Position numbers and translations under genes: made by a program
Part shown: positions 5,943 through 28,820 of the stretch, piece by piece
Layout of the letters: each line of letters opens with the position of its first letter
Numbering within the stretch: position 1 is the first letter of the stretch
The notes under the pieces: generated by a model
What the model was told of the DNA's origin: nothing
Databases searched by the model: none
The model's input: only the letters and a program-made list of their open reading frames with translations
Assembly (NCBI GenBank): GCA_048937405.1
Contig: JBHLNF010000007.1
Location: forward strand, 121,336 to 185,335
Direction of reading: 5' to 3'
From: Promethearchaeota archaeon
GTDB lineage: Archaea > Asgardarchaeota > Lokiarchaeia > Sigyniarchaeales > SOKP01
DNA: 64,000 nucleotides

Positions 5943-6046
5943 CGGGCTATGAGGGAATTTCGCGCTCACCATTCTTTAAAGAGCGATTCGAACCCCCGAC
6001 CTGCCGGTTAAGAGCCGGTTGCGCTACCTGCCTGCGCCAATAGCCC
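5943..6046 (-). tRNA. tRNA-Lys(CTT) with a 30-nt T-loop (59/60) intron at 5957-5986
   Basis: Acceptor GGGCTAT/ATAGCCC, anticodon loop CT-CTT-AA, BHB helix UUCG/CGAA with bulges AA|U and AU|U, intron stem CGCUC/GAGCG. Confidence 0.93.
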
Positions 6047-6085
6047 ATATATTATACCATATATTACCGATTGAAAGCTATAATA

Positions 6086-6187
6086 CGCAGATGGAGGGAC
6101 TCGAACCCCCGAGCGCTCACGCGCACCGGCTCACTCGGTTGTGAAAAACACTCAAGGCCGGCGTCTTACCAGCTAGGCTACATCTGC
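6086..6187 (-). tRNA. tRNA-Ser(TGA) with a 19-nt canonical (37/38) intron at 6132-6150
   Basis: Acceptor GCAGATG/CATCTGC, long variable arm, BHB helix CUUG/CGAG with bulges AG|U and UG|A. Confidence 0.93.
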
Positions 6188-6365
6188 AATTATATAACCA
6201 TAAATAAATTGTTCATAAATCGTAATTAATGGCTATTAAATTAGAGTATATTCTATAAAATAAATTTTTTTCATTTTGTACTGCTTTTAAAACTATTTTC
6301 TTGCATTAGATAAAGAAAACTATAAATTTTATGCTACATTGACCTCTAATTGAGTTGGGTAAGAA

Positions 6366-6854
6366 ATGAGCGCGGCAAAGGATTTTCGTTATTTAATACC
6401 TGAAAGTTTATTCAAAGAGATTACTCAAAAGGCAGCGGAAGAGTACCCTATGATAGTTCATGGGTGGTTGTTTGCCGATCGTAAAGAAAATTTTGGAATC
6501 TGCAAAAAGTTCATTATGAACCCTGATTTACGAAAAAACAAAGTCCATGTCAAACCAAGAAGTTGGATGCGCTACAAAAAGTCTAAAATCTATAACATGC
6601 GCAAGTTTAAAGCCGAACTGGGGGTAGACATTGTATGGATGTGGCATAGTCACCCTTCTGGTAATGACAAACTTCATACAATTGATAAAAGAATATTAAA
6701 ATATTTATCTAATGGTGTTATGATTATCGTAGTACCTCCAGTTCCAGATAAAACACCAGAACAAAAAGCTCATTTAGTAGGCTGGTATTACGATAAACGA
6801 TACACAAAAAAACCAATCATCGAAAAAATGGTTTTTGAGATAATTTCTGAATAG
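6366..6854 (+). CDS. JAB/MPN (JAMM-like) domain protein
   Basis: WHSHPSG...ID metal motif; YPxxVHGWL at the position of the PxExxG motif. Confidence 0.75.
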   Translation: MSAAKDFRYLIPESLFKEITQKAAEEYPMIVHGWLFADRKENFGICKKFIMNPDLRKNKVHVKPRSWMRYKKSKIYNMRKFKAELGVDIVWMWHSHPSGNDKLHTIDKRILKYLSNGVMIIVVPPVPDKTPEQKAHLVGWYYDKRYTKKPIIEKMVFEIISE

Positions 6855-6943
6855 AAAGTATTTTTAAATAGTTTAATTTCTTTTTCCTTTATTTTTTTGA
6901 GTTTTATAATAAAATATTAAAGTGTTATATTTGATGTATCAAA

Positions 6944-7056
6944 CGCTCAGGGTGGGATTTTCCAAAATATGCTAAATGCAACATTTTTTCGAACCCACGA
7001 ATCCATTGGACACCGGTTTAGCAGACCGGCGCTCTACCAGGCTAAGCGACCTGAGC
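6944..7056 (-). tRNA. tRNA-Ser(GCT) with a 30-nt T-loop (59/60) intron at 6958-6987
   Basis: Acceptor GCTCAGG/CCTGAGC, loop CT-GCT-AA, long variable arm, relaxed BHB (UUCG/GGAA) with intron stem AAAUGU/AUAUUU. Confidence 0.92.
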
Positions 7057-7150
7057 AGGAACTTAAAAAGAAATGCTGTAATTGAATTAATTTAAATTCA
7101 ATTATTTTATAAATAACAATTAAAAACTTTAATAATTTTTGTTTTGATAC

Positions 7151-7340
7151 TTACTCTTTGCCTTCTTTAATATCCTTTTTAGACCAATATCCTCTCGGTG
7201 GAGTGTTAATATCCCAGATTTTGCACCATTTACATATAGTATGGTCCGAGACTTGATTTTTTTTGGCAATTTCTGTCTTCGACATCTTCCATACAAGTTC
7301 TTTAAGTTATTCCTTGTTTAATTTAAATTTTCTTTTTGAA
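7151..7340 (-). pseudogene. Remnant of an HTH (PPRGYW-type) DNA-binding domain
   Basis: Translates SKRKFKLNKE*LKELVWKMSKTEIAKKNQVSDHTICKWCKIWDINTPPRGYWSKK..., with an in-frame TAA. Confidence 0.65.
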
Positions 7341-7469
7341 TGAATTTATAATGTTTCTTACTATTCTTTAATATGTTTTGGATGATTTCATATTTTAAAA
7401 GAGAAACCAGTGAAGAAAGCGCTATTTCTAGTTAGAATAATATTTAGAAAAAATGGTAAAAATAAAAAA

Positions 7470-8984
7470 TTAGAGTTTATAAAAATCTGCCCAGACCATT
7501 CGCTCTTCCTTAAAAGGATCATCGACTAATTTTACTTCAGGTCCAAAGAACATTGTGGACCTATTTTCAATGTCATAAGGATTCCATTTGGAAATACCCT
7601 CATGGTTAGGATTACCGTTTTGAGCAAATGAAATCCAAGAGCTCATCATCTTTTCACTCAGAATATCGGTTTCTTTACTTCTTTTTGGATAAATCAAACT
7701 TGCTTTATCGCCAAGTGTTCCAAAAACAAACTCAATTTCGAGGGCATGACACGCACCTAAAATTCCTCCCATTTCAGGTGTTTTATAAGTAAAAAGATAA
7801 GAATAGACATTAGGTTGGTGTTTAAATTGAGCTTCTGCTAATCGTATAGCAGACATTCTAAATCTGAAATCTGTTGATATTGCGTCTAAAATATCCTGAG
7901 GGTTTGTTGGTAGTTTTCCCTCCCGTGCTTTTTTATATGTCTCGATAATTTTCCGAGCCACTGCTTCATCTTGATTAAAAAGACGTATCATCCTATGGGT
8001 ACTATTAAATAAGCCCTCTTCGCTAAGTATTTCCCTTGAAGGCATTAAAGCTGTATATAGTTTCGCTTCATCCTGGTTTGTACCAACAATAAGTTCCACA
8101 TCGGAGGCAAATCCTTCACGAAGTGCTTCAAGGGGATGTTTTGGCAATGTTTTTTTATCGATATAAACACCGTATGGAAAATTTCTTCCTGTTGCACGAG
8201 CTTCCAACTCCATTTTCGTTTGGACTTCTACTATTTTTTGTGTTGGGACCTTTTTTAATGCTTCAATGTTGATTTTTTTTATACCTAAAGTTGTCATAAT
8301 ACGTTCAGCGCCTCTGGTTCCATTTTCAGGTTTATACCATAGAGGATGAGCTGCTCCACTTTGAGAAATTACCCGATTAAATAAACCTTTTGCTGGAGGC
8401 ATAGCCAATAAAGTAGAAACTGCTGCTCCACCAGCTGATTCACCAAAAATTGTCACATTGTTTGGATCACCTCCAAAAAGCATGACATTATCTCGAACCC
8501 ATTGAAGTGCGGTGATTTGATCCAATTGTCCTAAATTCGCAATTTCGTCTTGAATGAAAATATACCCGAATATTCCAAGACGATAATTTATTGAAATGAC
8601 TACAACATCACCAAATTTGACCATATTAGTTCCATTCGTAAGTGAACCACTACCAAAAGAAAATCCCCCCCCATGTATCCAAAATAGAACGGGTCGCTTC
8701 ATATCATCTATTCCTGGTGTCCACACATTTAAGGTTAAACATTTTTCTTCATCTTGTGGTGGGCGTGGCTTAGGAGTAAATGGTGAATCTCTCTGAGGTA
8801 CTTCAGGACCGAATTTTGTACAATCGAGAATACCACTCCAAGGCTTTTTTCGGATTGAGGGTTTGAATCTTAGTTCTCCAACAGGTGGTTCTGCATATGG
8901 AATTCCTTTGAAGATATTTATCCCATCTGCTTCATATCCTTTAATTTTGCCCTGTTTGATTTCAATAATTATCTCTTTTTCCAT
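7470..8984 (-). CDS. Carboxylesterase type B (para-nitrobenzyl esterase family)
   Basis: FKGIPYAEPP, WIHGGGF, FGESAGG nucleophile, GACHALE. Confidence 0.95.
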   Translation of the reverse strand: MEKEIIIEIKQGKIKGYEADGINIFKGIPYAEPPVGELRFKPSIRKKPWSGILDCTKFGPEVPQRDSPFTPKPRPPQDEEKCLTLNVWTPGIDDMKRPVLFWIHGGGFSFGSGSLTNGTNMVKFGDVVVISINYRLGIFGYIFIQDEIANLGQLDQITALQWVRDNVMLFGGDPNNVTIFGESAGGAAVSTLLAMPPAKGLFNRVISQSGAAHPLWYKPENGTRGAERIMTTLGIKKINIEALKKVPTQKIVEVQTKMELEARATGRNFPYGVYIDKKTLPKHPLEALREGFASDVELIVGTNQDEAKLYTALMPSREILSEEGLFNSTHRMIRLFNQDEAVARKIIETYKKAREGKLPTNPQDILDAISTDFRFRMSAIRLAEAQFKHQPNVYSYLFTYKTPEMGGILGACHALEIEFVFGTLGDKASLIYPKRSKETDILSEKMMSSWISFAQNGNPNHEGISKWNPYDIENRSTMFFGPEVKLVDDPFKEERMVWADFYKL

Positions 8985-9424
8985 TATTATACCATCAATT
9001 TAAATTATTTCAGTGTTATTTTTAAATATACTTATAAATAAAATTCTCTTATGAACTAAAATCTTTAGGAATTTTATCATCAATTTAATTTTTAGATCAT
9101 TTAATTGCATTTTCGTTAGATTTTCTACTCTCAACAGTTGCTCCCTAAAATTAAAAAAAAAAAATTTGTATTGCAAGTTTAAAACCAATGATAATAGTAT
9201 CCTCATATAATTTGGAAAGTTATATATTTTGGGTTGAGCTCCCTGAATAAGAAAGATATTTTATAGAAAAATCGTTTTAGACTAGTAATTCGGAAAAGAA
9301 GAAAGCAAAATTTTGATGTTCCTTATTTTTACAAAGAATCATTAAAGAGATGTCATAAAAAAGCTTTTTATACAAAAATTTTAATTAAAGTCAAAATTAA
9401 TCCTTATTATAAATTTATTAAATT

Positions 9425-9590
9425 GGGCCAGTGGTCTAGTGGTTATGGTTCAATTTTTTTAAAAACTTGAATAATAGACGTCGCGCTAATTTAATAGTAA
9501 ATATATTAAATCGTGACTACACCGCGAAGGTCGAGAGTTCAATTAGAAAAAAAAATTCTTTTCTTCTTGGAATCCTCTCCTGGCCCACCA
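9425..9590 (+). tRNA. tRNA-Val(TAC) with three 30-nt BHB introns (9448-9477, 9488-9517, 9544-9573) and encoded CCA
   Basis: Removing the three inserts gives a 76-nt cloverleaf GGGCCAG...TCGCG CT-TAC-AC CGCGA...CTGGCCC-A-CCA; each insert has a 4-bp helix and two 3-nt bulges. Confidence 0.93.
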
Positions 9591-9603
9591 TTTTTTTTTC
9601 ATA

Positions 9604-10386
9604 TTAGAGGATTTTTTTTATCTTGCTAGGTCTTATTGCACTTAATTTACAATTAGTAAAATTGTTTCCTACATGAGAAATAATTCCAGGAGCATCAGAT
9701 CCCTCTTTTAGTAATACTATATTTTCTAAAAATCCAAATCTCTTTACAGTTATAATATCTCTGAAATGACCTTTTTTGTTTATTATTTTCTTGAATTGAC
9801 CTTTAGTTTCACCGCTTAAAAACACACCCTCAATGTTTTCTTCAAGTATTTTCTTATAGAATTCCAAAGTTTTTGGTGCAATTTCCCCTAGTAATTTATT
9901 GTTTATTGTATCAATTTCAGTAATTTTAATATTTACAGGAAAATGATCAATAAAATCATAAGCATCAATAATTTGTTTTAAAGATCTCTCCTTTCCTTGA
10001 CATAATTGTTTTCTTAAAGTATGTAAATTTATAAGAACATCTGCATGTGGATTTACAATGGCACAATCAACAAACAGACCGAATCCAACTTTCCCTACAT
10101 CAACTAACGATCCCCTATATTCCTTGCCCACCTTAATATCCTTAAATTCATTAACGCTTCCGATTTCTTTCTTTAATAAATTATAGATAAACCTTTCTTC
10201 TGGACCACTGATTGTAATCTCGAATCTTTTATCAAATTTTCTTAATTTCTTAATCATTATTGAAGTCTGTAAAAACCCCTTTATGTGTTCTTTCAAATAT
10301 TTAAGATATCTAAGGTAAATATCTTCTTTCTTTCCTCGATTCGAGATATTATAGACTTTATCAAATAATACTAACTTTTGTACCAT
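9604..10386 (-). CDS. DUF2110 family protein (S1-like)
   Basis: GSLVDVGKVGFGLFVDC and GSDAPGIISHVG motifs typical of archaeal DUF2110. Confidence 0.75.
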   Translation of the reverse strand: MVQKLVLFDKVYNISNRGKKEDIYLRYLKYLKEHIKGFLQTSIMIKKLRKFDKRFEITISGPEERFIYNLLKKEIGSVNEFKDIKVGKEYRGSLVDVGKVGFGLFVDCAIVNPHADVLINLHTLRKQLCQGKERSLKQIIDAYDFIDHFPVNIKITEIDTINNKLLGEIAPKTLEFYKKILEENIEGVFLSGETKGQFKKIINKKGHFRDIITVKRFGFLENIVLLKEGSDAPGIISHVGNNFTNCKLSAIRPSKIKKIL

Positions 10387-10546
10387 AAGAAAACAATATA
10401 GTGCTGCTATGAATTAGAACTTAAATATACTAATGAGTTTTAAGAAAAATAGTTTTCTCAAAATCTTTTTTTCTGAAAAGATTTATATTACAAAATTTTT
10501 ATCTTTCAATAAATCAAATACAGATTTTTGCGAAAGATGGAATATT

Positions 10547-10918
10547 ATGGAAGAACAAAGATTTAATCAATTGATCAATGCCTTAAACGAATATGAAGGT
10601 GTGGAAGATGTTTTCTTATTAAATAACCAAGGTGATATAATTTTTAAATCTGGAGATTTTCCTTTAACGCCTGAGGAAGCTAAAACAATACTCAATTCAT
10701 GGAAATCTAAAGAACCTTCTCTAACATTTCAGGGATATCGGTTTGCAATTTTAAAAAATGATGATATTCAATTAGCTGCTAAAAATATTGGTGCGGGAAA
10801 AGGAAATATTGTTGGTTCAATTACCAAAGAAGGAGATTACCTAGTAGCTCATACTAGAGATGAAGGAATGATATTATTAGAATGGTCAATTTTCATTAAT
10901 AAAGTTGCATGGTCCTAA
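10547..10918 (+). CDS. Profilin-like protein (Asgard eukaryotic signature protein)
   Basis: About 123 aa from MEEQ; F-P-LTPEE..I...W, LTFQGYRFAIL, GKGNIVGSIT pattern of Asgard profilins; upstream ATG at 10433 is probably not the start. Confidence 0.7.
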   Translation: MEEQRFNQLINALNEYEGVEDVFLLNNQGDIIFKSGDFPLTPEEAKTILNSWKSKEPSLTFQGYRFAILKNDDIQLAAKNIGAGKGNIVGSITKEGDYLVAHTRDEGMILLEWSIFINKVAWS

Positions 10919-11111
10919 TTTGTCCTTAGAATACGATAAACAATACAAATTTTCTCTATATTGTATTTTCTATCATATATTATCCCTTTTTTAAAATATT
11001 TAAACAAAATATTTATTTTAGGATTTATTACTACTTTTTAACTAATGTAAAATAAAAATTAAAAAAATAATATAAATAGATAAATATTAAAAACTTTTAA
11101 GGTGCATCTAA

Positions 11112-11828
11112 GTGTTCCAACAAGCTGGAAGAGGCTATGATATGGCCATAACCCAATTCTCCCCTGAAGGTCGGCTTTTTCAAGTTGAATATGCAATTGA
11201 AGCCGTCCGACGAGGTACAACTGCAATTGTGTGTAGAAATAAGAATTCTGTTGTATTTGCAGTTGAAAAGAAAAGTTCAGAACTTCAAGATGATAGTACA
11301 GGTTCAGAAAAAATATTTAAAATAGATGATCATATTGGGGTGGCTATTGCGGGATTAACCGCAGATGCCCGAGTCTTAATCGATAGAGCCAGGGTTCAAG
11401 CCCAAGTAAATATATTAAATTATGATGAAAGAATCTCTGTTAAAGACAGTACACTAAATATATGTGAATACAAACAGGTCTTCACTCAAAATGCAGGGGT
11501 AAGACCATTTGGTGTATCATTTTTAATAGCAGGTATAGATTCTAATGGGCCTTCCTTATATTTAACAGACCCTTCTGGAGCGATGTGGTCATATTACTCG
11601 TTTGCTATCGGTTCAGGAGCAGCTGAAGCAAGGGCTTACCTTGAAGAGCATTACAATGAGGATATGAGTGATGAAGAATTAAAATTATTACCTTTAAGAA
11701 CGTTAAAAGAGGTAATGGGTGATAATTTAAATAAAAATACATATGATATAGCCTATATATTGAAAGAAGATAAAACGTTTAGGCTATTAAATTTAGATGA
11801 AAAGGAAGAATTGTTAACTAAAGTATAA
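11112..11828 (+). CDS. psmA: Proteasome subunit alpha
   Basis: GYDMAITQFSPEGRLFQVEYA, GVRPFGVS, TDPSGA. Confidence 0.98.
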   Translation: MFQQAGRGYDMAITQFSPEGRLFQVEYAIEAVRRGTTAIVCRNKNSVVFAVEKKSSELQDDSTGSEKIFKIDDHIGVAIAGLTADARVLIDRARVQAQVNILNYDERISVKDSTLNICEYKQVFTQNAGVRPFGVSFLIAGIDSNGPSLYLTDPSGAMWSYYSFAIGSGAAEARAYLEEHYNEDMSDEELKLLPLRTLKEVMGDNLNKNTYDIAYILKEDKTFRLLNLDEKEELLTKV

Positions 11829-11953
11829 TATCCTTAGGTTGTGAATATAAAGATAAAGGGAATCCCTTTCATATTTATCTTGTAACATAAGACAAAAGAA
11901 TTGGAAAACAATAAGTTGAGATAATTCAATCAGTTAATTTGTGACATAATTCT

Positions 11954-12745
11954 ATGATTGATAGGGCAAGGATTGATTTGGGAGGATATATTATTGGCCG
12001 TATTGAGAATTCAGGAAGAGCTTTTGAAATGCTAATGGATCCTGAGAAAGCTTGGGAGGCTAAAAAAATAATTCGTGAAGAAATCAATACTCGACTGAAA
12101 GAAGGAGAAGAAAAATCACGTCTCACCGTAGAAGATCTATTAAATGATAGGAAAATAGATTTAGAACTTATTTTTGAGAGCTTTACTGTATTTGAAGACT
12201 TACGCAGAGGAAAAAAAGCAACAGATGGAGATATGGAAGCAGTATTTAATACTACAGAGGGAATGACAATAGCTGCTCATATTCTATTAGACGGAGAAAT
12301 ACACTGGACAAAAGCTCAACGAGAGGAAGAAATGCAAAAAAAATTAAAACAAATAATAAATATTATAAGTAAAAATGCGATAAATCCTCAGAATAAAAAA
12401 CCTCATCCTTATCAACGAATAGAAAAAGCAATTGAAGAAGCAAATGTTAAAATTGATTTAATGAGAAATGCTGAAGAGCAAGTTGAAGATGTTGTTAAAA
12501 GTATTCGTGCAATTATTCCAATTAGAATAGAGCAAGTGGAGATGGCTATAAAGATTCCATCAGCATTTACAGCAAAAGGTTATAATATTGTAGCTCAATA
12601 TGTTCAAATTAAGAAAGAAGAATGGCAATCTGATGGATCCTGGGTTTCGGTAGTAAGTTTGCCTGCGGGATTGCAAATGGAACTGATTGATAAATTAAAT
12701 AAATTAACCCATGGAAGAGTTCAGACAAAAATCTTAAAGGCTTAG
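11954..12745 (+). CDS. sdo1: Ribosome maturation factor SBDS/Sdo1
   Basis: AINPQ..PHPYQRIEKAIEEA, EEWQSDGSW; conserved position after psmA. Confidence 0.95.
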   Translation: MIDRARIDLGGYIIGRIENSGRAFEMLMDPEKAWEAKKIIREEINTRLKEGEEKSRLTVEDLLNDRKIDLELIFESFTVFEDLRRGKKATDGDMEAVFNTTEGMTIAAHILLDGEIHWTKAQREEEMQKKLKQIINIISKNAINPQNKKPHPYQRIEKAIEEANVKIDLMRNAEEQVEDVVKSIRAIIPIRIEQVEMAIKIPSAFTAKGYNIVAQYVQIKKEEWQSDGSWVSVVSLPAGLQMELIDKLNKLTHGRVQTKILKA

Positions 12746-12823
12746 CCTAAAAATTTTTAATTTATTTTCGTTTGTATTATTTTTTTCATTAGGTTAGGAG
12801 AATAACAAAATTATAGAAAAAAT

Positions 12824-13627
12824 GTGAGTAGTATTATGGAAGAAGATGAAGAATCTATAGAAACTGTCGATGATGATTTTGAAGATTATGAAAATGATGA
12901 AGAAGATGTAAGAGATGTTGTAGTTCCTGGAGAAATTCTGACTGAAGATGTTAATAACTACATACCAGGAAGGGGAACAATATTAAATAAAGAAAAGAAT
13001 AAAATTATCTCTTTAAACATTGGTTTAAAACAAATAAAAAAGAATTATATAAATGTTATTCCTCTTCGGGGATTTTACACACCACGTCCAGGAGATAAGG
13101 TTATAGCTTTAGTAGTTGACAAGAACCCTGTTAAATATAAATGTGATATTAATGCAAAAGATTACGGTCAACTCAAGCCTAAGAATACAATGAAAAAAGG
13201 GAGAGCTAGAGGTTTTAAAGGAGGAGGTTCTTCTCATGAGGAAGTAACTACAGAAAAATTTGATATAGGAGATATATTAGTCGTAAAAATACTTTCTGCT
13301 GATCGTTTAAATAAACCTGAATTAACTACGGTTGGAAAATACTTAGGAAAAAAGGTAGGAGGAATAGTAATATCAATAGATCCACCTAAAATTCCAAGAG
13401 TAATTGGTAGAGACGGATCAATGATTAAAATGTTAAAAAATTTAACTAAATGTAATATATTTGTAACCCAAAACGGGCGTATTTGGCTGAAAGGTGAAAG
13501 TATTGCTCATGAAAGATTGCTTATTGAATCAATCAATAAAATTTCTTTGGAAGCTCACACTGTTGGGTTAACGGATAGAATGCAAGAGTATATTATAAAT
13601 GAAAAAAAGAAAAGAGGTATAGAATAG
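12824..13627 (+). CDS. rrp4: Exosome RNA-binding protein Rrp4
   Basis: VVVPGE, YTPRPGDKVI (S1), KIPRVIGRDGSMI (KH), GLTDR. Confidence 0.95.
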   Translation: MSSIMEEDEESIETVDDDFEDYENDEEDVRDVVVPGEILTEDVNNYIPGRGTILNKEKNKIISLNIGLKQIKKNYINVIPLRGFYTPRPGDKVIALVVDKNPVKYKCDINAKDYGQLKPKNTMKKGRARGFKGGGSSHEEVTTEKFDIGDILVVKILSADRLNKPELTTVGKYLGKKVGGIVISIDPPKIPRVIGRDGSMIKMLKNLTKCNIFVTQNGRIWLKGESIAHERLLIESINKISLEAHTVGLTDRMQEYIINEKKKRGIE

Positions 13628-14413: not shown

Positions 14414-14415
14414 AA

Positions 14416-20924: not shown

Positions 20925-20980
20925 GCACTTCTTTATTTCTTGATTTTCCGCGTATTTAATTTAAAATTAAAGAGTCTCTT

Positions 20981-21517
20981 CTAAATTTTTCGTATATATT
21001 TTAATTTAATAATATCACTTTCCTCTAAAAAAGAAATTCCACATATATTATCTAAAATTTCAATTCTAATAACTTTATCTGGATTTTCAAGATTTACTTT
21101 ATTATCAATATCTTTAGTAATTGTATCAATAAAATTTGTCCTTTCTATTTTTTCATGTTTTCGACGCTTCAATGTTATTCTGAACGTTTCATCTTCATTA
21201 ATGAAATCTTTATAATTCTCTTGTATCAAGTAATTTATAGTCTTTATATCAGTTTCACATATAAAATCAATAGGTACAATTTTTAAAATAAATTGAAAGA
21301 AATCAGGATTTTTTTTTATTATCCCCCTTATCTCTGATATTACTTTTTTTTTATCTAAATCAGTTAGAGCAGTAATTAATCCTTGAAACGGAATTCCTGA
21401 AATAATGGGATAGGTATCACCACACATTAATAAAGTAAACCATAATTCTGCTTTTGCTTCTGTTTCATTATATCTTGGAGTTGAAACTAAAAGATTAAAA
21501 TTCTTCAATTGTATCAC
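20981..21517 (-). CDS. THUMP domain RNA-binding protein
   Basis: TFRITLKRR...KVNLENPDKVIRIEI. Confidence 0.88.
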   Translation of the reverse strand: MIQLKNFNLLVSTPRYNETEAKAELWFTLLMCGDTYPIISGIPFQGLITALTDLDKKKVISEIRGIIKKNPDFFQFILKIVPIDFICETDIKTINYLIQENYKDFINEDETFRITLKRRKHEKIERTNFIDTITKDIDNKVNLENPDKVIRIEILDNICGISFLEESDIIKLKYIRKI

Positions 21518-21522
21518 TTCAT

Positions 21523-22182
21523 TTATTTTGATAAAAATTCCAATATTTCTTCTTCAGAAATCTTTCCTTTTCGTAAAAATCTTACACTTTCACCTGTACA
21601 ATCTACTATAGTAGTTGGAATTCGTGATTTTGACTTACCACCATCAATTATCAGATCTATAGGGCTTAAAATTTTCTTAGATACTTCTTCCCCGCTAATA
21701 GAGGGAGATTCTCCAGAATAATTCGCCGAAGTTCCTATTATTCCACCGAAATATCCTTCTGATTTCAAAAGTTTTAATATATTTAATATTATTTCATTTT
21801 CAGGAACTCGTAAACCTATAGTGTCTTGATAGGCAGTTACTTCGGGAGGTATAATGCTTGGTTCCTTTTTTTTTAAAATTAAAGTTAATTGACCTGGCCA
21901 ATAGTGTTTTGCTAATCTTTCAGCGTAATTATTGAATTCAGCAATTTTAATGGCCTCTTCAAAGTCAGAAATTAGTAATAATAATCCTTTTGATCTATCA
22001 CGAAATTTAATATCATAAATCTTGTTTATAACTTCAAGATTTTGAGGATCTCCTCCTATTCCATATACGGAATTAGTAGGGAATGCAAAAATCTTTCCTT
22101 CAATAATGTTCTCAACAGCAATCTTTAAATAGAAATTAATATCCTTTAGTTCTTTTCCGGCTAATCTAATTAAAAATCCCAT
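21523..22182 (-). CDS. sua5: Threonylcarbamoyl-AMP synthase (Sua5/TsaC domain only)
   Basis: FPTNSVYGIG, IKFR, WPGQLT, GLRVP, TSANYSG. Confidence 0.93.
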   Translation of the reverse strand: MGFLIRLAGKELKDINFYLKIAVENIIEGKIFAFPTNSVYGIGGDPQNLEVINKIYDIKFRDRSKGLLLLISDFEEAIKIAEFNNYAERLAKHYWPGQLTLILKKKEPSIIPPEVTAYQDTIGLRVPENEIILNILKLLKSEGYFGGIIGTSANYSGESPSISGEEVSKKILSPIDLIIDGGKSKSRIPTTIVDCTGESVRFLRKGKISEEEILEFLSK

Positions 22183-22243
22183 TTAAAATCTAGCTGTATT
22201 TTAATACAATATTGAAAAAATAATATAATAAAAAATATAAAGA

Positions 22244-23185
22244 TTATTTTGGATATTGTTCCTGGCAGCTTAGGTCCGCTTCTAAACGTTTCCAAGTATG
22301 ATCCAAGTATTCTTGGAGTCCAATGATTTCTTTTTCTGAAATATTTGCAAATCTTTTCTGTTTAGACAGGTAATCCATCATTGGAGCTCTTTTGGAAGGA
22401 TCCAGTAATGATTTACTTGCTTTTGATAATGTCATGATTCCATTTTCTACTTCGTATAAAATCCATGAACCTGTTTTTACAGCTAATCTTGCTACTTCTA
22501 TTGATTCTGAACTATCCATACCCCAACCAGGTGGACAAGGAGCTAGAATATGAATATATCTGCAACCTTTAATCGACTTTGCTTTCTTAAACTTATCATA
22601 TAAATCAAGTGGTTCACTAATCGAACAAGTAGCTACATAAGGTATATCATGAGCAGCCATAATTGCTGGAAGATTCTTTTTGAAACGTTCCTTTCCTTTT
22701 GTAGTTGTCGTGGTCCATGCTCCATGTGGTGTACTTGAAGATCGTTGAATGCCTGTATTCATATATGCCTCATTATCATAACATACATAAATTTGATCAG
22801 AATTTCTTTCTGCTGCTCCACTTAAACCTTGAATTCCAATATCCGCTGTTCCACCATCTCCTGCAAATGTAATTGCTGTCATATCATCCCAGCCCTTACC
22901 AGGAAATCTATATGCTTTAGCCTTAAAAGCGGCAGATAAACCTGTTGCAGCTGCGGCTCCCGCAGCAAAAGCCATATTTGTAAATGGAAAATTTGGAGCT
23001 GTTTTAGGCCATAATCCGACAACAACATTAAGACAGGAAGCGGGAGTAACAAGGGCTGTATTGGGGCCCAATGCTTTCATTGCCCATCTTAGAGCGATTT
23101 CTAAACCACATCCTGCACAGCATGAATTTCCTGGAAGAAAATATTCTTCTTGGCAAGATTCTAATGCTTCTTTTAATTTTGTCAT
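22244..23185 (-). CDS. porB: Pyruvate/2-oxoacid:ferredoxin oxidoreductase beta subunit
   Basis: CAGCG, GDGGTADIG TPP motif, YDNEAYMNTGIQRS, CPPGW. Confidence 0.95.
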   Translation of the reverse strand: MTKLKEALESCQEEYFLPGNSCCAGCGLEIALRWAMKALGPNTALVTPASCLNVVVGLWPKTAPNFPFTNMAFAAGAAAATGLSAAFKAKAYRFPGKGWDDMTAITFAGDGGTADIGIQGLSGAAERNSDQIYVCYDNEAYMNTGIQRSSSTPHGAWTTTTTKGKERFKKNLPAIMAAHDIPYVATCSISEPLDLYDKFKKAKSIKGCRYIHILAPCPPGWGMDSSESIEVARLAVKTGSWILYEVENGIMTLSKASKSLLDPSKRAPMMDYLSKQKRFANISEKEIIGLQEYLDHTWKRLEADLSCQEQYPK

Positions 23186-23189
23186 TATA

Positions 23190-24446
23190 TCATTCCACCT
23201 CTAATAATCCGTCCCAGAGAGTTCCATGAATTATATCTTTTGGAAGTTCTCCGGTTTCATTATATTTAACTAATTTTTTTAATTGCTCTTTTTGCTGCTC
23301 AAGAGAAACTTCTCTTCCCCCTAAACCATTAATTATTGGTAATATTGTGGCAGTTCCTTTGGTTTCATGAAGTACACCTTTAACTTCACAACTCACTGGT
23401 CCTCCTGTTTGAGAACCAAAAGCTGTAGCTCTATCTATAACTCCAAGAACTTTCACCTTTTTAGCAACATCAAGAATATCTTCTGTAGGAAAGGGTCTAA
23501 AATGTCGAAGCTTTACCATACCAACTTTATAACCTTCATCTCTTAATTGATCTACAGCTTCTTCCATTTGTAATGCTAAATCTCCATATATAATTACCGC
23601 CACGTCTGCATTATCCATTTTGTATTCTTGAATTAGACCATTACCATAATCTCTACCAAATACCTTCTTAAATTCTGCTGCTGCTTGCTTAATTTTCTCT
23701 TTAGCTTTCATAAATGCATCATGAATCTTTAATCGAAATTCATAATAAAAACCAGAAGGCATGATAAGATTGCCAAACATCATTGGTCTTTTTGGGTCCA
23801 TCCAAATATGTGGCCAACCTTCCTCACTCGGTAATGGCGGTATGTATTTATCTACAAGATCTTGATCTTCAATAATAACAGGTTTAGAAGTATGTGAGAG
23901 AATAAATCCTCCATATGCAACAAATTTAGGCAAAAGAATATCCTGATCTTCGCAAACCTTATACGACATTAATATTTCATCATAAATTTCTTGATGGGCA
24001 GCACAGAAAGAACTCATCCATCCTGTATCACGCTGACTTATTACGTCAGTAAAATCCGCCCAAATATTCCAGGGTGGTGCGGGTGCTCGAGATGCTATAG
24101 CGACTACAATAGGAAGTCTAGCACCACCAGCCCAATGAATCATTTCATGAGCATAAAATATACCCTGACCAGATGTTGCAGTGAAAGTTCTAGTACCTGC
24201 TTTACTGGCACCCACCACTGCTCCGAAAACACTATGTTCTGATTCCACTTTAATATATTCAGTTCCAGGCATTTCCCCATTGTCAACGAATTCTGATAAT
24301 TTTTCGACAACAGTGGTTTGTGGAGTGATAGGATAAGCACTAATCACCTGCACTCGTGCGGATTTTGCTGCATAAGCTGCTGCTACATTTCCTTTTATAA
24401 TAATAGTTTCTCTTTCTTGAATAAAATCTTTCTGAGCTTCAGTCAT
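23190..24446 (-). CDS. porA: Pyruvate/2-oxoacid:ferredoxin oxidoreductase alpha subunit
   Basis: AYPITPQT, VESEHS, TATSGQG, FRPFP. Confidence 0.95.
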   Translation of the reverse strand: MTEAQKDFIQERETIIIKGNVAAAYAAKSARVQVISAYPITPQTTVVEKLSEFVDNGEMPGTEYIKVESEHSVFGAVVGASKAGTRTFTATSGQGIFYAHEMIHWAGGARLPIVVAIASRAPAPPWNIWADFTDVISQRDTGWMSSFCAAHQEIYDEILMSYKVCEDQDILLPKFVAYGGFILSHTSKPVIIEDQDLVDKYIPPLPSEEGWPHIWMDPKRPMMFGNLIMPSGFYYEFRLKIHDAFMKAKEKIKQAAAEFKKVFGRDYGNGLIQEYKMDNADVAVIIYGDLALQMEEAVDQLRDEGYKVGMVKLRHFRPFPTEDILDVAKKVKVLGVIDRATAFGSQTGGPVSCEVKGVLHETKGTATILPIINGLGGREVSLEQQKEQLKKLVKYNETGELPKDIIHGTLWDGLLEVE

Positions 24447-24786
24447 TTTTTATATCACTCTCCCTTATCATATCTATGTTATTTGTTGGGCATTCTTTTG
24501 CACATATACCACATCCTTTACAGTATAACAAATCAATTTCGAATGTGCCATCTTCTTTTCTTTTAATTACACCCTCTGGACAATACATCCAGCATATTCC
24601 ACACTTATTACATCCTTCTTTAATTATAGGTCTAAAAGTTCTCCAATCGCCAGTTGTACCAATATTTCCTTCAATGGGTAATGATATTGGAATTGGAGGT
24701 AATTCTTTCCAATTTTTATATTCTTGAACCTTAGGACGCTCTTTTATTGATTTATTAATTTTCTTCCATTTTTTTGATTCTGACAT
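24439..24786 (-). CDS. porD: 2-oxoacid:ferredoxin oxidoreductase delta subunit (2x[4Fe-4S])
   Basis: TGDWRTFRP, CxxCxxCxxxCP twice. Confidence 0.95.
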   Translation of the reverse strand: MSESKKWKKINKSIKERPKVQEYKNWKELPPIPISLPIEGNIGTTGDWRTFRPIIKEGCNKCGICWMYCPEGVIKRKEDGTFEIDLLYCKGCGICAKECPTNNIDMIRESDIKND

Positions 24787-24788
24787 GA

Positions 24789-25364
24789 TTAAACCTCTTT
24801 AACTGATTCATATGCATCTTTAGCAACGCTCATATTTTTCTCTAATCTGTTTTCTCCAAATTCCTTCGTAATAACTTTCTCCATAGTTTCTAAATTATAG
24901 TATCCTGTAACCTTCCCGAAAGCTCCTAACATAGGTATATTTAAAATTGGTCCACTTGCATGCATAAAATTCCTTTTAATACATATCCCTGTGGCATCTA
25001 CAAGAAAGATCTTAATGTTATTTGGGAGATCACTTTTATCTATTTTATTAGCACTATTAATTATGAGATTAACTCCTTCTTTTATTGTACTTCTAATCGT
25101 GGGAATCTCTAATAATGAAGTATCAAAAATAAGCATATAATCAGGATTTTTTACACTATCATACGTTTTAATTGATTTATTTTTCGAAACTTTTGTAAAT
25201 GCTTGAATTGGAGCACCTCTTCGTTCAGCTCCAATTATCGGAATTGCAATTGTATCCTTGAAATCTTCCTCGTATGCCATTTCTGCTAACAATTGACTCG
25301 CAGTAATACATGTCTGACCACCTCTACAATGCATCGATATTTCTACTATCTTTTCATTCGACAT
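24789..25364 (-). CDS. porG: 2-oxoacid:ferredoxin oxidoreductase gamma subunit
   Basis: HCRGGQ, GAERRGAP, NIPMLGA. Confidence 0.93.
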   Translation of the reverse strand: MSNEKIVEISMHCRGGQTCITASQLLAEMAYEEDFKDTIAIPIIGAERRGAPIQAFTKVSKNKSIKTYDSVKNPDYMLIFDTSLLEIPTIRSTIKEGVNLIINSANKIDKSDLPNNIKIFLVDATGICIKRNFMHASGPILNIPMLGAFGKVTGYYNLETMEKVITKEFGENRLEKNMSVAKDAYESVKEV

Positions 25365-25766
25365 TTTTTTCCACTTTTTTCTTTTTTAATTTTTATATGC
25401 AATTTTCTCAGAACAACCAACAAAAACGCCGAGATATAACTTTTCTGGGTTGTCTGTTAGTTAAATTCTTATACTAATACAAGAATAAGAATTAATGATA
25501 ATAATACTAATAAGTTTCGGATAATAATACTATGATTTTTGCCTATAATCATCATTATTTCCTCGACGTTATAATATTATTCAAAAATTTATAATACTTT
25601 TATTTAATATCTTAAAAAACAGTGATCAATAAAAAATTTTCGAAATAGATTTATAATTTTGGGAATAATAAACAAAAAAGTAATTAGCTTAATTAGATAA
25701 ATATCAAAACAGAAAAAAAGTAGTGTTTATTATTTTAAATTAAATAAACCGTTTTATATTGAAGTT

Positions 25767-26330
25767 ATGTCAGAAAAGGCAGCAAATTCAGAAGAAGTTT
25801 TTTCCTTCAAGTGCCCAACTTGTAAAAATGGTATAATTGCCATTAAAAAAGCGATATATGACTTGCCAGATGGGGATAAAATGCTGATATTAAAATTTGA
25901 ATGCAATTCCTGTAATTTCCATAAAAACGATATAATCCCCTTAACTACAAATATGGAATCGGGAATTATGACCTTAAGAATTACCGAAGAGAATGACCTA
26001 AAATCTAAGATTTACCGATCACCTACAGGTAAATTAGAGATTCCTGAACTAGATATAATAGTAGAACCGGGTCCCAGAGCTGATTTCTATTATACTAACG
26101 TACAAGGTATATTATTTCGATTTGAACAGGCAGTCTCAATATATAGAAATAGCCTTGAAAAGAATGATCCAGCTAAAAGTGAAATGGATGAACTTTTATC
26201 TACTTTAAAACATGCTATAGAAGGTAAATTTAAGTTTACTTTAAAATTGACAGATTTCCAGGGAGGTAGTTATATCATTCCTGAAGATAAATCAAAATAC
26301 ACTTTCAAGAAAATTCAGAAAGAGGAATGA
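25767..26330 (+). CDS. zpr1: ZPR1-type zinc finger protein
   Basis: CPTC...CNSC, IPEL.I.VEPG, TNVQG, LTDFQGGSYI. Confidence 0.9.
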   Translation: MSEKAANSEEVFSFKCPTCKNGIIAIKKAIYDLPDGDKMLILKFECNSCNFHKNDIIPLTTNMESGIMTLRITEENDLKSKIYRSPTGKLEIPELDIIVEPGPRADFYYTNVQGILFRFEQAVSIYRNSLEKNDPAKSEMDELLSTLKHAIEGKFKFTLKLTDFQGGSYIIPEDKSKYTFKKIQKEE

Positions 26331-26465
26331 TTTAGGATTTTTTTCTAATTTTATAATCTTTTTATGAAAATTAAAAAATCAGAAAGTTAAGAAAGCTAAG
26401 AGATTTAAGAAGGAAGTTAATCAATTTATTGTAACAAGAAATTCTTAGCTAGAAAGAGACAAATA

Positions 26466-27542
26466 ATGCAGCGAGAGATAAAACACTACAATAGGTGGTT
26501 AACTAATAATATTCAAGGTTATCTAAAAGGACTTAAGGGTGAAATCAGGGTCCTATTTGAACCATATATAGAATTCAAAAAAATGGGTACACTTTTTGGG
26601 CTTTACAAAAATTACATTCCAACTAATAGGATGCATAAATATTGTAGAAAAATTATAGCTAAAAATACTTTAGATAAAATGCGTGCTAAATTCAAAAAAT
26701 TTATTGAAATTTGGATAGAAAAATACCCACATTTGGTTCAGTCATTATTATTAGTACAATCTTATATTATGAAGTATATTGATGAATATGAGGTAATTCT
26801 TCAACCAAAACCTTCCCCAGATTATCAAATGTACAAATTCCATCCTGCTTTTAAAAGAAACTATTTTGAAATAATCGATACATATGAAAAAGCATATTGG
26901 CTTGGATTTCTATTTGCTGATGGATGGATTGCAATAGAACATAAGAAATCTGGAGATTATTATCGAATGGGGCTCCAATTATCATATAGCGATAAAAGAG
27001 TTGTTAAGGAACTTTGTAAATGTATAGGATTAAATCCCAGTTTTATTAAAATTCGTCTAGTAAAAAGTGATTTTAGTACGAAAATATATCCTATAAGTGA
27101 AATTAGATGGGGAGATCAGAAAATGGCTCAAGATCTATTAAAAATAGGGATGAGATATGAAAATAATGAAGAAAAAGGAAGACGAGTTAAAACACCAAAA
27201 CTTCCAAACTTAAAAAACCGAAATTTGATGCTAGCATTTTTATTAGGTTTCTATGATGGTGATGGCACCCTTGGATATGATAAAAAGACTGGTAAAATTC
27301 GTCCTAGAATTGCTTCCTCAGATATTGAATTTTTACGACAAATAAAAAATTTTTTTGGAATTAAATACAAAATTTCTTCCACTGCGATGTTATATTTCAA
27401 TATTAGAAAAAAGAAAATGATTAAAACAAGAGGGAGTAGACTTGATATTGAAAAAGAGATTTTTAAAAAAATGTTAAGTGTATATAAAAAAAGTCTTGAA
27501 AGGAAAAGAGTTTCATTAGATTATTTTAATGGTACTCATTAA
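26466..27542 (+). CDS. Free-standing double-motif LAGLIDADG homing endonuclease-like protein
   Basis: AYWLGFLFADGWI and AFLLGFYDGDGTL motifs. Confidence 0.88.
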   Translation: MQREIKHYNRWLTNNIQGYLKGLKGEIRVLFEPYIEFKKMGTLFGLYKNYIPTNRMHKYCRKIIAKNTLDKMRAKFKKFIEIWIEKYPHLVQSLLLVQSYIMKYIDEYEVILQPKPSPDYQMYKFHPAFKRNYFEIIDTYEKAYWLGFLFADGWIAIEHKKSGDYYRMGLQLSYSDKRVVKELCKCIGLNPSFIKIRLVKSDFSTKIYPISEIRWGDQKMAQDLLKIGMRYENNEEKGRRVKTPKLPNLKNRNLMLAFLLGFYDGDGTLGYDKKTGKIRPRIASSDIEFLRQIKNFFGIKYKISSTAMLYFNIRKKKMIKTRGSRLDIEKEIFKKMLSVYKKSLERKRVSLDYFNGTH

Positions 27543-27640
27543 AATTGAATAAAATAGTTATTGATATAAGATATTTTTTTTATAATTTGCATTCTTTCTA
27601 ATAGATATAATATCAAAAAACGTTTTAGAAGAAGGTTTAT

Positions 27641-28820
27641 ATGACAATAAAACGAGTAGGAATTTTAACAGGCGGCGGAGTCATGTCTAAGATTTAACTT
27701 AACTGCCGTTTACTGTCCTGGGTTAAATTCTGTTCTCTATGGAATCATGCTTAAAGGTTATGATGCAGGAATTGAATGTGTTGGGATCCTGAAAGGATGG
27801 AAAGGATTTGTGGAAAATCAAACAATTCCACTTGATATTGCAGAACATGATGATTTACATACTGTTGGTGGAACAATTTTATATACAAGTAGAACAAATC
27901 CCTTTAAAAATGTGAGTTCAAAAGAGCAAAAAGCAAAAAATTTAACCAAAAAATTTGAAGAATTAGGAATTGATGCTCTAATTGCTATCGGTGGAGATGA
28001 TACTCTTGGAGTAGCTGATACTATATATAAGTTTGGAGATGCTAAGGTAGTTGGAGTGCCCAAAACCATTGATAATGATTTAGCAGGGACTCATTATACA
28101 TTTGGATTTTGGAGTGCTGTACAATTAGCTTCAAATACTCTCGATAATCTTACTACTACTGCTCATTCACATCAGAGAGTATTTGTTGTAGAAATTATGG
28201 GAAGGGATGCTGGTTTTTTAACAATGTATAGCGGAATTTCTGCAGGAGCAGATATAATCTTAATTCCAGAAACTCCATTTGATTTAGAAAAAGATATAAT
28301 AAATGTTTTGAAAAATCGAGTTGATGCAGGATATAAATATCACATTATTGCTACATCAGAAGGAGCATATCCTAAATTAGAATCGCTAAATAGAGATTTT
28401 AAAACTATTTCAAAAGAAACAATTGATAAACTACCGAAGGATACATATGGAAATCCTTTATTGGCTAAATTAGGTATGTCTAAAATAATTGTCGATGAAC
28501 TTGATTTAAGAGATGATTTAAAAGAAAAATTTCAAGAAAATGGAGTAGAATTTGAGTGTAGAAGTGTAGTACTTGGTCATACTATGCGAGCAGGAACTCC
28601 AAATTCATTTGATAGAATATTAGGGTTAAGATTTGGATTAGCAGCAATGAAACTTGTTTTAAACGGTGAATTTGGGAATATGGTCTCTCTTCAAGGAAAT
28701 AAAATTCAAACAGTTCCCTTATCAGAAGGAGTTAAAAAGAAATATATCACCACCGAGAATGATAAAATGGAATTAAGAGATCTTTTAGTAAAAATCCGCT
28801 ATTTATCCAAACAAAAATAA
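27641..28820 (+). CDS. pfp: PPi-type 6-phosphofructokinase, join(27641..27680,27712..28820), 382 aa after removal of a 31-nt intron
   Basis: Exon 1 MTIKRVGILTGGG + spliced GAC + CPGLNSVLYGI is in frame with ORF 27747..28820; GGDDT and PKTIDND indicate PPi specificity; MGRDAG, LGHTMR. Confidence 0.92.
27681..27711 (+). other. 31-nt bulge-helix-bulge (tRNA-type) intron in the pfk mRNA
   Basis: Helix GCGG(27675-78)/CCGU(27706-09), bulges AG|U and UU|A, internal and exon stems; removal restores the GAC (Asp) codon. Confidence 0.88.

Follow-up and report, generated by a model that had tools for sequence, protein, structure and literature searches.

The window that we analyzed is a 64,000-nucleotide stretch of contig JBHLNF010000007.1 (positions 121,336 to 185,335) from a Loki-type (Promethearchaeia) Asgard archaeon, which we compared with the assemblies of 24 sister species. 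Within it lie intron-containing tRNA genes, on the minus strand except for tRNA-Val on the plus strand, and a phosphofructokinase gene (pfk) with an insert near its start. A free-standing gene resembling LAGLIDADG homing endonucleases lies directly upstream of pfk (Table 1). A sequence-only reading had placed these introns, and every one of its coordinates held on re-inspection. The lengths that it gave were also right: 30 nt for each of the five noncanonical tRNA introns, 19 nt for the canonical intron of Ser(TGA), and 31 nt for the pfk insert.

Table 1. Genes and introns of the window
Feature	Position	Strand	Details
tRNA-Lys(CTT) gene	5943..6046	(-)	104-nt pre-tRNA; found by acceptor plus T-arm finder; ARAGORN level 118 once intron removed
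Lys(CTT) T-loop intron, 30 nt	5957..5986	(-)	T + 23-nt hairpin + CGAA + AT
tRNA-Ser(TGA) gene	6086..6187	(-)	Rfam RF00005, 44.3 bits
Ser(TGA) canonical 37/38 intron, 19 nt	6132..6150	(-)	No inner hairpin
tRNA-Ser(GCT) gene	6944..7056	(-)	113-nt pre-tRNA
Ser(GCT) T-loop intron, 30 nt, relaxed BHB	6958..6987	(-)	ARAGORN level 118 with 30 nt taken out
tRNA-Val(TAC) gene, three introns	9425..9587	(+)	163-nt pre-tRNA
Val(TAC) D-loop intron, 30 nt	9448..9477	(+)	Central helix 4/4; 23-nt hairpin almost wholly paired
Val(TAC) anticodon-loop intron, 30 nt, between positions 33 and 34 as read here	9488..9517	(+)	Central helix CGCG/CGTG, 4/4
Val(TAC) T-loop intron, 30 nt	9544..9573	(+)	Central helix 4/4; outer helix 5 bp
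LAGLIDADG homing-endonuclease-like gene, free-standing	26466..27542	(+)	Pfam LAGLIDADG_3, E = 8e-9
pfk exon 1	27641..27680	(+)	ATG at 27641; MTIKRVGILTGGG + first base of Asp codon
pfk mRNA BHB intron 1, 31 nt	27681..27711	(+)	T + 24-nt hairpin + CCGT + TT
pfk exon 2 (phosphofructokinase body)	27712..28820	(+)	357-aa ORF 27747-28820 shares frame with 27712

We found that the five noncanonical tRNA introns and the pfk insert share one modular plan: 1 nt, a 23-nt hairpin (archetypally 9 bp with a 5-nt loop), 4 nt, and 2 nt. In pfk the hairpin is 24 nt, which gives the total of 31 nt. The 4-nt strand near the 3′ end of the intron pairs with exon bases 3 nt upstream of the 5′ cut. The suggested 4-nt complementarity between the end of each intron and its upstream exon was correct for five of the six, which form 4/4 pairs, a match expected at about 2% of random sites when G-U is allowed. 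It was not fully correct for Ser(GCT), which forms 3/4 pairs in the 30-nt register and 4/4 in a 29-nt register.

These inserts have the bulge-helix-bulge (BHB) architecture of two 3-nt bulges, a 4-bp helix, and flanking helices. The Lys(CTT) intron forms a perfect hBHBh′ motif (GGGGG-TTCG-AAT-[5 bp/13 nt/5 bp]-CGAA-ATT-CCCTC), with a central helix of 4/4 pairs and outer and inner helices of 5 bp each. The Val(TAC) 33/34 intron has an outer helix of 2 bp and an inner helix of 8 bp with a 7-nt loop. With the introns removed, the tRNA sequences are top-scoring ARAGORN tRNAs (Val(TAC) minus all three introns is the best-scoring tRNA, at 76 nt), and pfk regains an in-frame GGGDCPGLN motif. Taking this description as a whole, we consider it very likely that all six are genuine BHB (tRNA-type) introns on one modular plan. 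Self-splicing group I or II introns and retro-homing elements do not fit the 30- to 31-nt size, the Rfam result (a single tRNA was the only match in the window), or the absence of a profile match to the RVT_1 reverse transcriptase from the genome, which is estimated to be 100% complete.

At the gene level, the genome encodes both a splicing endonuclease probably able to cut noncanonical sites and RtcB (564 bits). We found two EndA paralogues of about 200 amino acids each, 30% identical, each with N-terminal and catalytic domains. By our reading of the alignment, one of them lacks the catalytic His, which points to an (alpha-beta)2-like enzyme. Such a two-subunit splicing endonuclease would cut in both 3-nt bulges, and RtcB would then join the exons.

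Introns in the pfk mRNA

Removal of pfk intron 1 joins GGC GGC GGA G to AC TGT CCT and keeps the frame of the 357-aa ORF. In intronless relatives, GGAGGAGGAGATTGTCC is uninterrupted. Exon 2 shows 65 to 93% identity to 80 related loci. We found intron 1 in 21 of 78 related loci; in 20 of these it measures 31 nt and in the remaining one 30 nt. The loci that carry it extend to relatives with 69% protein identity and include many Promethearchaeia. In the intron alignment, 95.3% of cells are paired, versus 32 to 49% when the partners are slid. Five pairs have changes on both sides, and the central helix is 100% paired across the 21 sequences. A frameshifting 31-nt insert that is present or absent among 78 loci and shows five two-sided pair changes belongs with mRNA BHB introns of the cbf5 type.

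Ten relatives have a second pfk intron, at the GGDD motif, and it is 30 nt in all of them. The sequence-only reading had imagined a stop-free, frame-neutral 30-nt mRNA intron. Intron 2 does not fit that picture, as it holds in-frame stops.

Intron length in the genome and its sister species

The 30-nt size is not confined to the window. We obtained 28 well-supported noncanonical tRNA introns from this genome, of which 13 measure exactly 30 nt, 20 fall within 29 to 31 nt, and 24 within 28 to 32 nt; the outliers are 16, 33, 35, and 37 nt. Lengths from the BHB-plus-ARAGORN pipeline and from motif-free removal agreed within about 1 to 3 nt (most 28 to 32, mode 30), D-loop and variable-region boundaries being uncertain by 1 to 3 nt because mature loop lengths vary, and about one-third of the tRNA loci being parsed by eye alone. 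Pre-tRNA lengths are quantized near 73, 103, 133, and 163 nt, with acceptor-to-acceptor clusters at 71 to 75, 101 to 105, 128 to 140, and 163 to 168 nt. By ARAGORN, only seven tRNAs are intronless. The exceptions to about 30 nt are noncanonical introns of 14 to 16, 26, 33, 35, and 37 nt as well as inserts near 53 nt. Canonical-site introns spread over 17 to 53 nt. Short introns of 14 to 22 nt without a hairpin, namely, the 17- to 22-nt canonical ones and a 14- to 16-nt insert in the D loop of Val(GAC), occur in the same genome.

Across the 24 sister species, which are related genomes and not independent samples, tRNA introns appear and disappear in 30-nt units. Val(TAC) orthologues are 73, 103, 132 to 135, or 163 nt long, and the T-loop intron is 30 nt in each sister species that carries one. 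At least 10 sister species have no intron in Lys(CTT); in others this tRNA has a T-loop intron of 29 to 31 nt with a different sequence. We collected 29 distinct T-loop introns across the genus and found that 22 are exactly 30 nt despite widely differing sequence and stability (hairpin folding energy, -0.6 to -11.1 kcal/mol; loop, 3 to 13 nt). In these species the canonical intron of Ser(TGA) measures 19, 22, 25, 27, or 28 nt.

Intron lengths fall in a narrow range both here and in the sister assemblies, not in the broad genome-wide spread that the sequence-only reading had named as its own refutation, and a local coincidence is therefore not upheld. The idea of a size-locked class survives in part: the class is genuine and narrowly centered on 30 nt, but it is not locked, as 30 is its mode, 29 to 31 nt are common, and lengths from 16 to 37 nt occur. 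The genome and genus lengths also bear out a size class common to noncanonical tRNA introns and mRNA introns and distinct from canonical 37/38 introns. "Exactly 30" is thus the mode of a real, narrow class, and the size characterizes the class as a whole, in genome and genus and in the pfk mRNA of many Promethearchaeia. With about 46% of the genome's noncanonical introns at exactly 30 nt, five of five in the window is itself a draw of about 2%; the peak is real, but by luck the window shows it more sharply than the genome as a whole does. Motif-only genome scans gave no excess at 30 nt, because of a background of about 16 to 35 chance hits per length and not because the signal is absent.

How the size may arise

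Our preferred explanation, which we hold to be probable, is that these are BHB introns on one plan whose size is set at gain and then held structurally. Between sister species, the length at a given site changes in steps of 30 nt, and in some cases the sequences are unrelated, which suggests that an intron would already be about 30 nt at the moment of gain. Unrelated-looking introns at one site could instead reflect fast divergence. After gain, length would change little because almost every base sits in a helix or bulge. Canonical 37/38 introns form a separate, older, length-variable class. Setting of size at gain together with structural constraint, judged as a pairing of its own, is tentative and falls just short of an even chance. 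The 30-nt class bears on the question of how archaea gain introns.

It is possible, but rather unlikely, that the splicing machinery imposes the size. An (alpha-beta)2 endonuclease or a partner would accept noncanonical sites only with an inner hairpin of about nine stacked pairs and a small loop, and selection would trim or pad introns to about 30 nt whatever their origin. Length does hold steady as sequence, GC content, and stability vary, and pfk intron 1 stays 31 nt over deep divergence. Many hairpins are a perfect 9 bp with a 5-nt loop, weaker ones retain the 23-nt frame, and canonical-site introns, seated on the intact anticodon stem, escape the rule and differ in length. However, the 14- to 22-nt introns without a hairpin weaken a hard size limit in the splicing machinery, one of the options of the sequence-only reading, and predicted loops of 3 to 13 nt mean that physical hairpin length is not obviously constant. 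Archaeal EndA, which recognizes both bulges together with the 4-bp helix between them, is not known to contain a length-measuring element.

We also entertain, as a speculative and somewhat unlikely possibility, a dedicated process independent of reverse transcriptase that would write ready-made 30-nt hairpin modules with a target-matched 4-nt strand into RNA genes and coding sequences of Promethearchaeia, or a size-dependent function of the excised 30-nt RNAs that would hold their length. If true, either version would mean that the closest prokaryotic relatives of eukaryotes acquire introns by a route that is new, and that the tRNA machinery routinely splices mRNA in these archaea.

Spread of intron-bearing alleles at the DNA level by homing is an unlikely explanation. 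Free-standing LAGLIDADG endonucleases could cut intronless alleles, so that repair copies in the neighboring intron (collaborative homing, or gene conversion). The LAGLIDADG gene in the window lies 99 nt upstream of the pfk start codon and 139 nt upstream of the intron, which it may help to mobilize. Among relatives with the intron, 3 of 21 have a homologue upstream of pfk, versus 0 of 57 among those without it; these are small counts from related genomes. The genome has five further copies, some broken. Yet most intron-bearing pfk loci have no LAGLIDADG gene, nor does any lie beside the tRNA genes within the window. Homing would explain presence and absence between species, not the first origin of the module.

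Copying of existing introns is improbable. Excised 30-nt introns, linear or circular, would be ligated into other RNAs at sites matching their 4-nt strand and copied into DNA, with length inherited. This would explain why the introns are equally long, carry a matching 4-nt strand, and have spread to tRNAs and mRNAs alike, and copying does happen locally: adjacent Ser(TGA) and Lys T-loop introns in one sister genome have identical last 11 nt, and the Leu(CAG) and Leu(TAG) D-arm introns are alike. However, RVT_1 is missing, the 16 introns tested have no near-copies elsewhere in the genome beyond a reversed-sequence control, and introns of different tRNAs are no more similar than shuffled ones (identity, 0.31 versus 0.28). 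Cross-isotype families make up 1.5% in Asgard archaea versus 28% of introns in Thermoproteales, where they were interpreted as transposition (10.64898/2026.10.13.758758). These results weaken the proposed reverse ligation of excised introns with copying back into DNA, and the origin of the module does not look like retro-copying of existing introns.

Local coincidence or artefact, meaning equal lengths by chance in a broad distribution or assembly errors or pseudogenes, is extremely improbable: the long-odds five of five and the silent motif-only scans could be read that way, but the scans are swamped by background, the distribution is narrow, independent assemblies carry the same inserts at matching positions, their removal restores canonical tRNAs and the catalytic PFK motif, and pfk intron 1 covaries.

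Comparison with known systems

Thermoproteales have noncanonical and multiple BHB tRNA introns (Sugahara 2008; Fujishima 2010, as cited in 10.64898/2026.10.13.758758; review PMC4090602). There, too, protein-spliced BHB introns interrupt tRNAs at many positions, one gene can carry several, and the splicing endonuclease of the lineages concerned is broad in its specificity. Unlike theirs, the introns of different tRNAs here share no sequence, and apart from local exceptions we did not find the similar introns in different tRNA types that mark transposing Thermoproteales introns. The Thermoproteales literature searched reports neither a single 30-nt hairpin design nor spread into many mRNAs.

Papers that focus on the Atabeya, Freya, Freyr, and Jordi lineages likewise describe most tRNA genes as interrupted, mostly at noncanonical sites, with repeated gains and two EndA paralogues, and likewise identify no arrival route. 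The median intron length there is 22 to 23 nt. A 30-nt mode, the 1+23+4+2 plan, and introns in protein-coding genes go unmentioned in these papers, and "mRNA" occurs 0 times in the preprint.

The pfk intron resembles the cbf5 pre-mRNA BHB intron of Crenarchaeota (Yokobori 2009, PMC2738675), a tRNA-type intron within a coding sequence that comes and goes among relatives and is presumably a substrate of the tRNA-splicing endonuclease. It differs in its host gene, where it lies inside the GGGDCPGLN motif, and in its phylum. It also follows the fixed size and plan seen in the tRNA introns of its genome, and a second intron occurs in pfk of relatives.

Collaborative homing of an intron and a free-standing homing endonuclease is known from phage psbA and T4-like cases, which involve self-splicing group I introns. 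As there, the endonuclease gene is a neighbor of the intron-bearing gene and not part of it, and it occurs solely next to alleles with the intron. Unlike there, the intron is 31 nt and of the protein-spliced type, and the weak association comprises 3 of 21 relatives and the window's own locus. What is new relative to the literature searched is the near-uniform 30-base hairpin plan of tRNA-type introns, present in both tRNA genes and a phosphofructokinase mRNA.

tRNA introns of the window and their plan

We found that the four tRNA genes proposed for the window by the sequence-only reading, and all six proposed inserts at the coordinates given, were borne out when the sequence was read. ARAGORN called 0 of the 4 tRNA genes in the window, and an Rfam search recognized one of the 4, Ser(TGA). 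ARAGORN scores were highest for tRNAs from which the proposed segments had been taken out. In Lys(CTT), the outer helix of the predicted bulge-helix-bulge (BHB) is the T-stem, and the structure also has two 3-nt bulges and an inner hairpin. The 4-bp central helix is formed by exon TTCG paired with intron CGAA. If each bulge is cut between its second and third bases, exactly the listed interval would come out and a normal T-loop would remain.

A geometry scan found the Lys(CTT) intron and the three Val(TAC) introns. The earlier claim that each intron ends in 4 nt complementary to its upstream exon held in full (4/4 central-helix pairs) for these four introns and in part for Ser(GCT), which has 3/4 pairs in the 30-nt register. 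All of the non-canonical introns parse as 1 nt, a 23-nt hairpin, a 4-nt exon complement, and 2 nt; the hairpin of the intron in the phosphofructokinase gene (pfk) is 24 nt. The canonical (37/38) intron of Ser(TGA) is 19 nt, and the inner hairpin is absent from two canonical short introns.

Coordinates of the introns and related features. C numbers are contigs of the genome holding the window (G000), and L numbers are loci from relatives.
Feature	Location	Strand	Length	Detail
Lys(CTT) intron	window 5957-5986	minus	30 nt	GGGGG-TTCG-AAT-CGCTC...GAGCG-CGAA-ATT-CCCTC
LAGLIDADG homing-endonuclease-like ORF	window 26466-27542	+	358 aa	free-standing
pfk intron 1	window 27681-27711	+	31 nt	
Site equivalent to pfk intron 2	window about 27990-28004			intron absent
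pfk intron 2	within L057:2270-2330		30 nt	same place in L052, L061-L064, L075, L082, L088, L091
tRNA-Val(GAC) with short insert	C20:40632-40721	-		outside window
tRNA-Leu(TAA) with D-arm insert	C16:73710-73886	+		outside window
tRNA with CTTATAA anticodon loop	C7:233103-233283	-		outside window
Possible tRNA-Sec (TCA)	C7:230441-230552	+		outside window
Adjoining Ser(TGA) and Lys(CTT), sister genome G003	L022 ~1507-1780	-		

Intron lengths in the genome and its relatives

The genome holding the window is 4.47 Mb (28.9% G+C, 29 contigs). Without introns allowed, ARAGORN called 7 tRNA genes in the whole genome; about 20 reached the Rfam cutoff, and full-length Rfam matches were mostly 101 to 105 nt. 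Using a finder whose sole requirements are a T-arm and an acceptor stem with complementary strands, we found that pre-tRNA lengths are quantized, at 71 to 75 nt (5 genes), 101 to 105 nt (about 12), 128 to 140 nt (about 10), and 163 to 168 nt (3), with class II lengths displaced by about 12 nt.

We measured intron lengths by validating BHB candidates with ARAGORN, by registration of the T-loop class, and by a motif-free procedure in which one or two segments were taken out and ARAGORN provided the only score. The three methods agreed to 1 to 3 nt, a slack that arises because D-loop and variable-region lengths vary; boundaries of D-loop introns are uncertain by 1 to 3 nt. Automatic recursive BHB removal with ARAGORN was unreliable for multi-intron tRNAs, so by-eye reading and motif-free removal were used instead, and about a third of tRNA loci were parsed by eye. 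Motif-only BHB scans gave about 16 to 35 chance matches per length even under strict rules. Because this background is so high, the roughly 60 real introns are invisible to such scans, which are uninformative, either way, on a 30-nt excess.

Among 28 well-supported non-canonical introns of this genome, 30 nt was the mode (n = 13), and the others measured 16 nt (1 intron), 28 nt (2), 29 nt (5), 31 nt (2), 32 nt (2), and 33, 35, and 37 nt (1 each). The sequence-only reading had proposed a size-locked class and named a broad genome-wide distribution as the finding that would speak against it. We found a narrow distribution with a 30-nt peak; "exactly 30" is only its mode, and five of five introns at exactly 30 nt is about a 2% draw from it. 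A near-identical T-loop site is interrupted in 15 different tRNAs, by introns of 30 nt in 8, 29 nt in 3, and 28, 31, 33, and 35 nt in 1 each. Canonical-site introns were wider in length (17, 19, 22, 22, 25, 29, 31, about 49, and 53 nt).

Four further tRNA loci outside the window were recorded. The insert of Val(GAC), an exception to the size class, is only 14 to 16 nt and G+C rich, and it occupies the D-loop site at which Val(TAC) carries its 30-nt intron 1. The D-arm insert of Leu(TAA), about 61 nt, resembles two adjoining 30-nt hairpins, both containing TTTACAC...AAAA, and may represent tandem or nested introns. The tRNA with the CTTATAA anticodon loop (anticodon written TAT) contains two inserts, each of about 53 nt, well beyond the 30-nt class. 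At the last locus, ARAGORN reported a possible tRNA-Sec once inserts of 34 and 27 to 31 nt were removed.

To compare species, we retrieved Val(TAC) and the locus holding Ser(TGA) and Lys(CTT) from 24 congeneric genomes, which are not independent samples. Across them, introns come and go in 30-nt units. The Val(TAC) pre-tRNA is intronless in seven species (73 nt, or 74 nt in one). In other species it measures 103 nt where the T-loop intron is the only one, 132, 133, or 135 nt where there are two introns, and 163 nt where all three are present. Lys(CTT) has no intron in at least 10 species; in others its T-loop holds one, mostly of 30 nt and otherwise of 29 or 31 nt. In two species, Ser(TGA) has an additional T-loop intron, also of 30 nt. 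The canonical intron of Ser(TGA) is missing in one sister species and otherwise measures 19, 22, 25, 27, or 28 nt, mostly in 3-nt steps (L002-L025). Length change is thus possible on this time scale in the same genomes, and the 30-nt class shows none. In a genus-wide Rfam tRNA search for insert lengths, the best 150 matches listed were mostly intronless.

Counting this genome and its relatives, 22 of 29 distinct T-loop introns are exactly 30 nt, and 27 of 29 are 29 to 31 nt. Their hairpin folding energies run from -0.6 to -11.1 kcal/mol, their predicted loops from 3 to 13 nt, and their compositions from almost pure A+T through G+C rich. About eight have a perfect 9-bp stem and a 5-nt loop, the apparent archetype. 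Certain same-site introns are clearly homologous across species; others, for example the Val T-loop intron in one species, which is G+C rich, and the D-loop intron in another, have little in common save their ends. In sister genome G003, the 30-nt T-loop introns of adjoining Ser(TGA) and Lys(CTT) share their final 11 nt (CTGACGGGATT), a hint of gene conversion, or of copying on a local scale, between T-arms that are nearly identical.

Introns in the phosphofructokinase gene

Removal of the 31 nt of pfk intron 1 joins GGC GGC GGA G to AC TGT CCT and restores GGGDCPGLN in frame with a long ORF, as expected of the mRNA intron proposed earlier. We collected 80 pfk loci from Promethearchaeia-type assemblies (65 to 93% protein identity), 78 of which span the insertion site. 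The site is uninterrupted (GGxGGxGGxGAyTGyCC) in 57 of the 78, and the intronless context is GGAGGAGGAGATTGTCCTGG. The other 21 carry an insert at the identical point, 31 nt in 20 and 30 nt in one. In the alignment of these introns, pairing in the 4-bp central helix is complete (100% of cells) and includes a C-G to U-A exchange. Over the structure as a whole, 95.3% of cells are paired, compared with 32 to 49% when partners are slid by 1 to 3 columns. Five pairs changed on both sides, and no shuffle matched the observed covariation score. Such a pattern is the mark of an RNA structure maintained by selection and would not be seen in a pseudogene undergoing decay.

In ten relatives, the catalytic GGDD motif is interrupted, between GGA G and AC GAT, by a second insert that measures exactly 30 nt. 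This insert contains an 8+7+8 hairpin (23 nt), and two or three stop codons fall in frame within it. A scan that joined ORFs to look for mRNA introns was swamped by neighbor genes in other frames and missed the pfk intron itself.

The LAGLIDADG ORF ends 99 nt ahead of the pfk start codon and 139 nt ahead of the intron. Upstream of pfk, homologues are present in 3 of the 21 relatives with the intron (intact in L067, fragments in L088 and L064) versus 0 of the 57 without it. This genome has five additional copies, three with internal stops, and the background in a search for BHB inserts around them was very noisy. The LAGLIDADG gene may help intron-bearing pfk alleles spread, yet it leaves the 30-nt design unexplained.

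What sets the size, and comparison with known introns

We found that intron length depends neither on hairpin stability nor on how the hairpin is divided between stem and loop. Differences between species come in whole 30-nt units, and the sequences at a given site are sometimes unrelated, which favors introns that would be about 30 nt when gained. Our best reading is that size would be fixed at gain by a DNA-level process and then held structurally, since helices and bulges would take up nearly every base.

In a serious rival reading, the splicing machinery would contain a ruler that acts on non-canonical sites only. The genome encodes RtcB and two splicing-endonuclease paralogues (197 and 200 aa, 30% identical), each with N-terminal and catalytic domains; in a pairwise alignment, the catalytic-triad His is kept in one and missing in the other. 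As to the type of enzyme, about which the sequence-only reading had asked, the paralogues fit a two-subunit (alpha-beta)2 endonuclease, with subunits putatively assigned from the alignment, and this type is reported to cut non-canonical introns (PMC5829648). The same genome carries 14- to 22-nt introns without a hairpin. The endonuclease therefore has no absolute need for 23 nt, which weakens the case for a hard size constraint in the machinery.

Copying of introns, including the spread by reverse ligation of excised introns proposed earlier, left no sign. Identity between introns of different tRNAs was 0.31, versus 0.28 for shuffled sequences; no extra genomic copies of 16 tested introns rose above the reversed-sequence control, and no RVT_1 reverse transcriptase was found in the genome. 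Negative copying tests in other Asgard lineages agree with this result (10.64898/2026.10.13.758758). Shrinkage of introns until just stable is rejected because hairpins of one length, 23 nt, have energies that span -0.3 to -11.1 kcal/mol. By eye, the loops of 16 introns of this genome had no consistent signature, several ending in TTC (AATTC, TTCTC, ATTTC), and border repeats resembling target-site duplications were inconsistent (sliding ambiguity, 0 to 2 nt).

Coding genes of these Asgard archaea are routinely interrupted by predicted tRNA-type introns; pfk alone has two sites, both in catalytic motifs. Gene callers and tRNA finders consequently misannotate such genes, and annotations of this lineage will undercall tRNAs and split intron-bearing genes. 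These predicted introns would broaden the part that the tRNA-splicing machinery is known to play in maturing mRNA, and would do so in the closest lineage to eukaryotes. A 2026 preprint on Asgard tRNA introns concludes that "how they arrive remains open" (10.64898/2026.10.13.758758). A single fixed design that recurs at unrelated tRNA and mRNA sites is a concrete handle on archaeal intron gain, and any maker or filter of these introns has to account for the number 30.

BHB introns at non-canonical tRNA sites are of an already published kind. Heavy intron loads in some Asgard archaea have been described (PMC11291895; 10.64898/2026.10.13.758758), as has one archaeal mRNA BHB intron, in cbf5 (PMC2738675). 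In the searchable literature, we found no common 30-nt 1+23+4+2 design, cross-species constancy, or occurrence in pfk. The 30-nt mode found here differs from the medians of 22 to 23 nt in the focal Asgard lineages of the 2026 preprint, which never mentions mRNA (10.64898/2026.10.13.758758).
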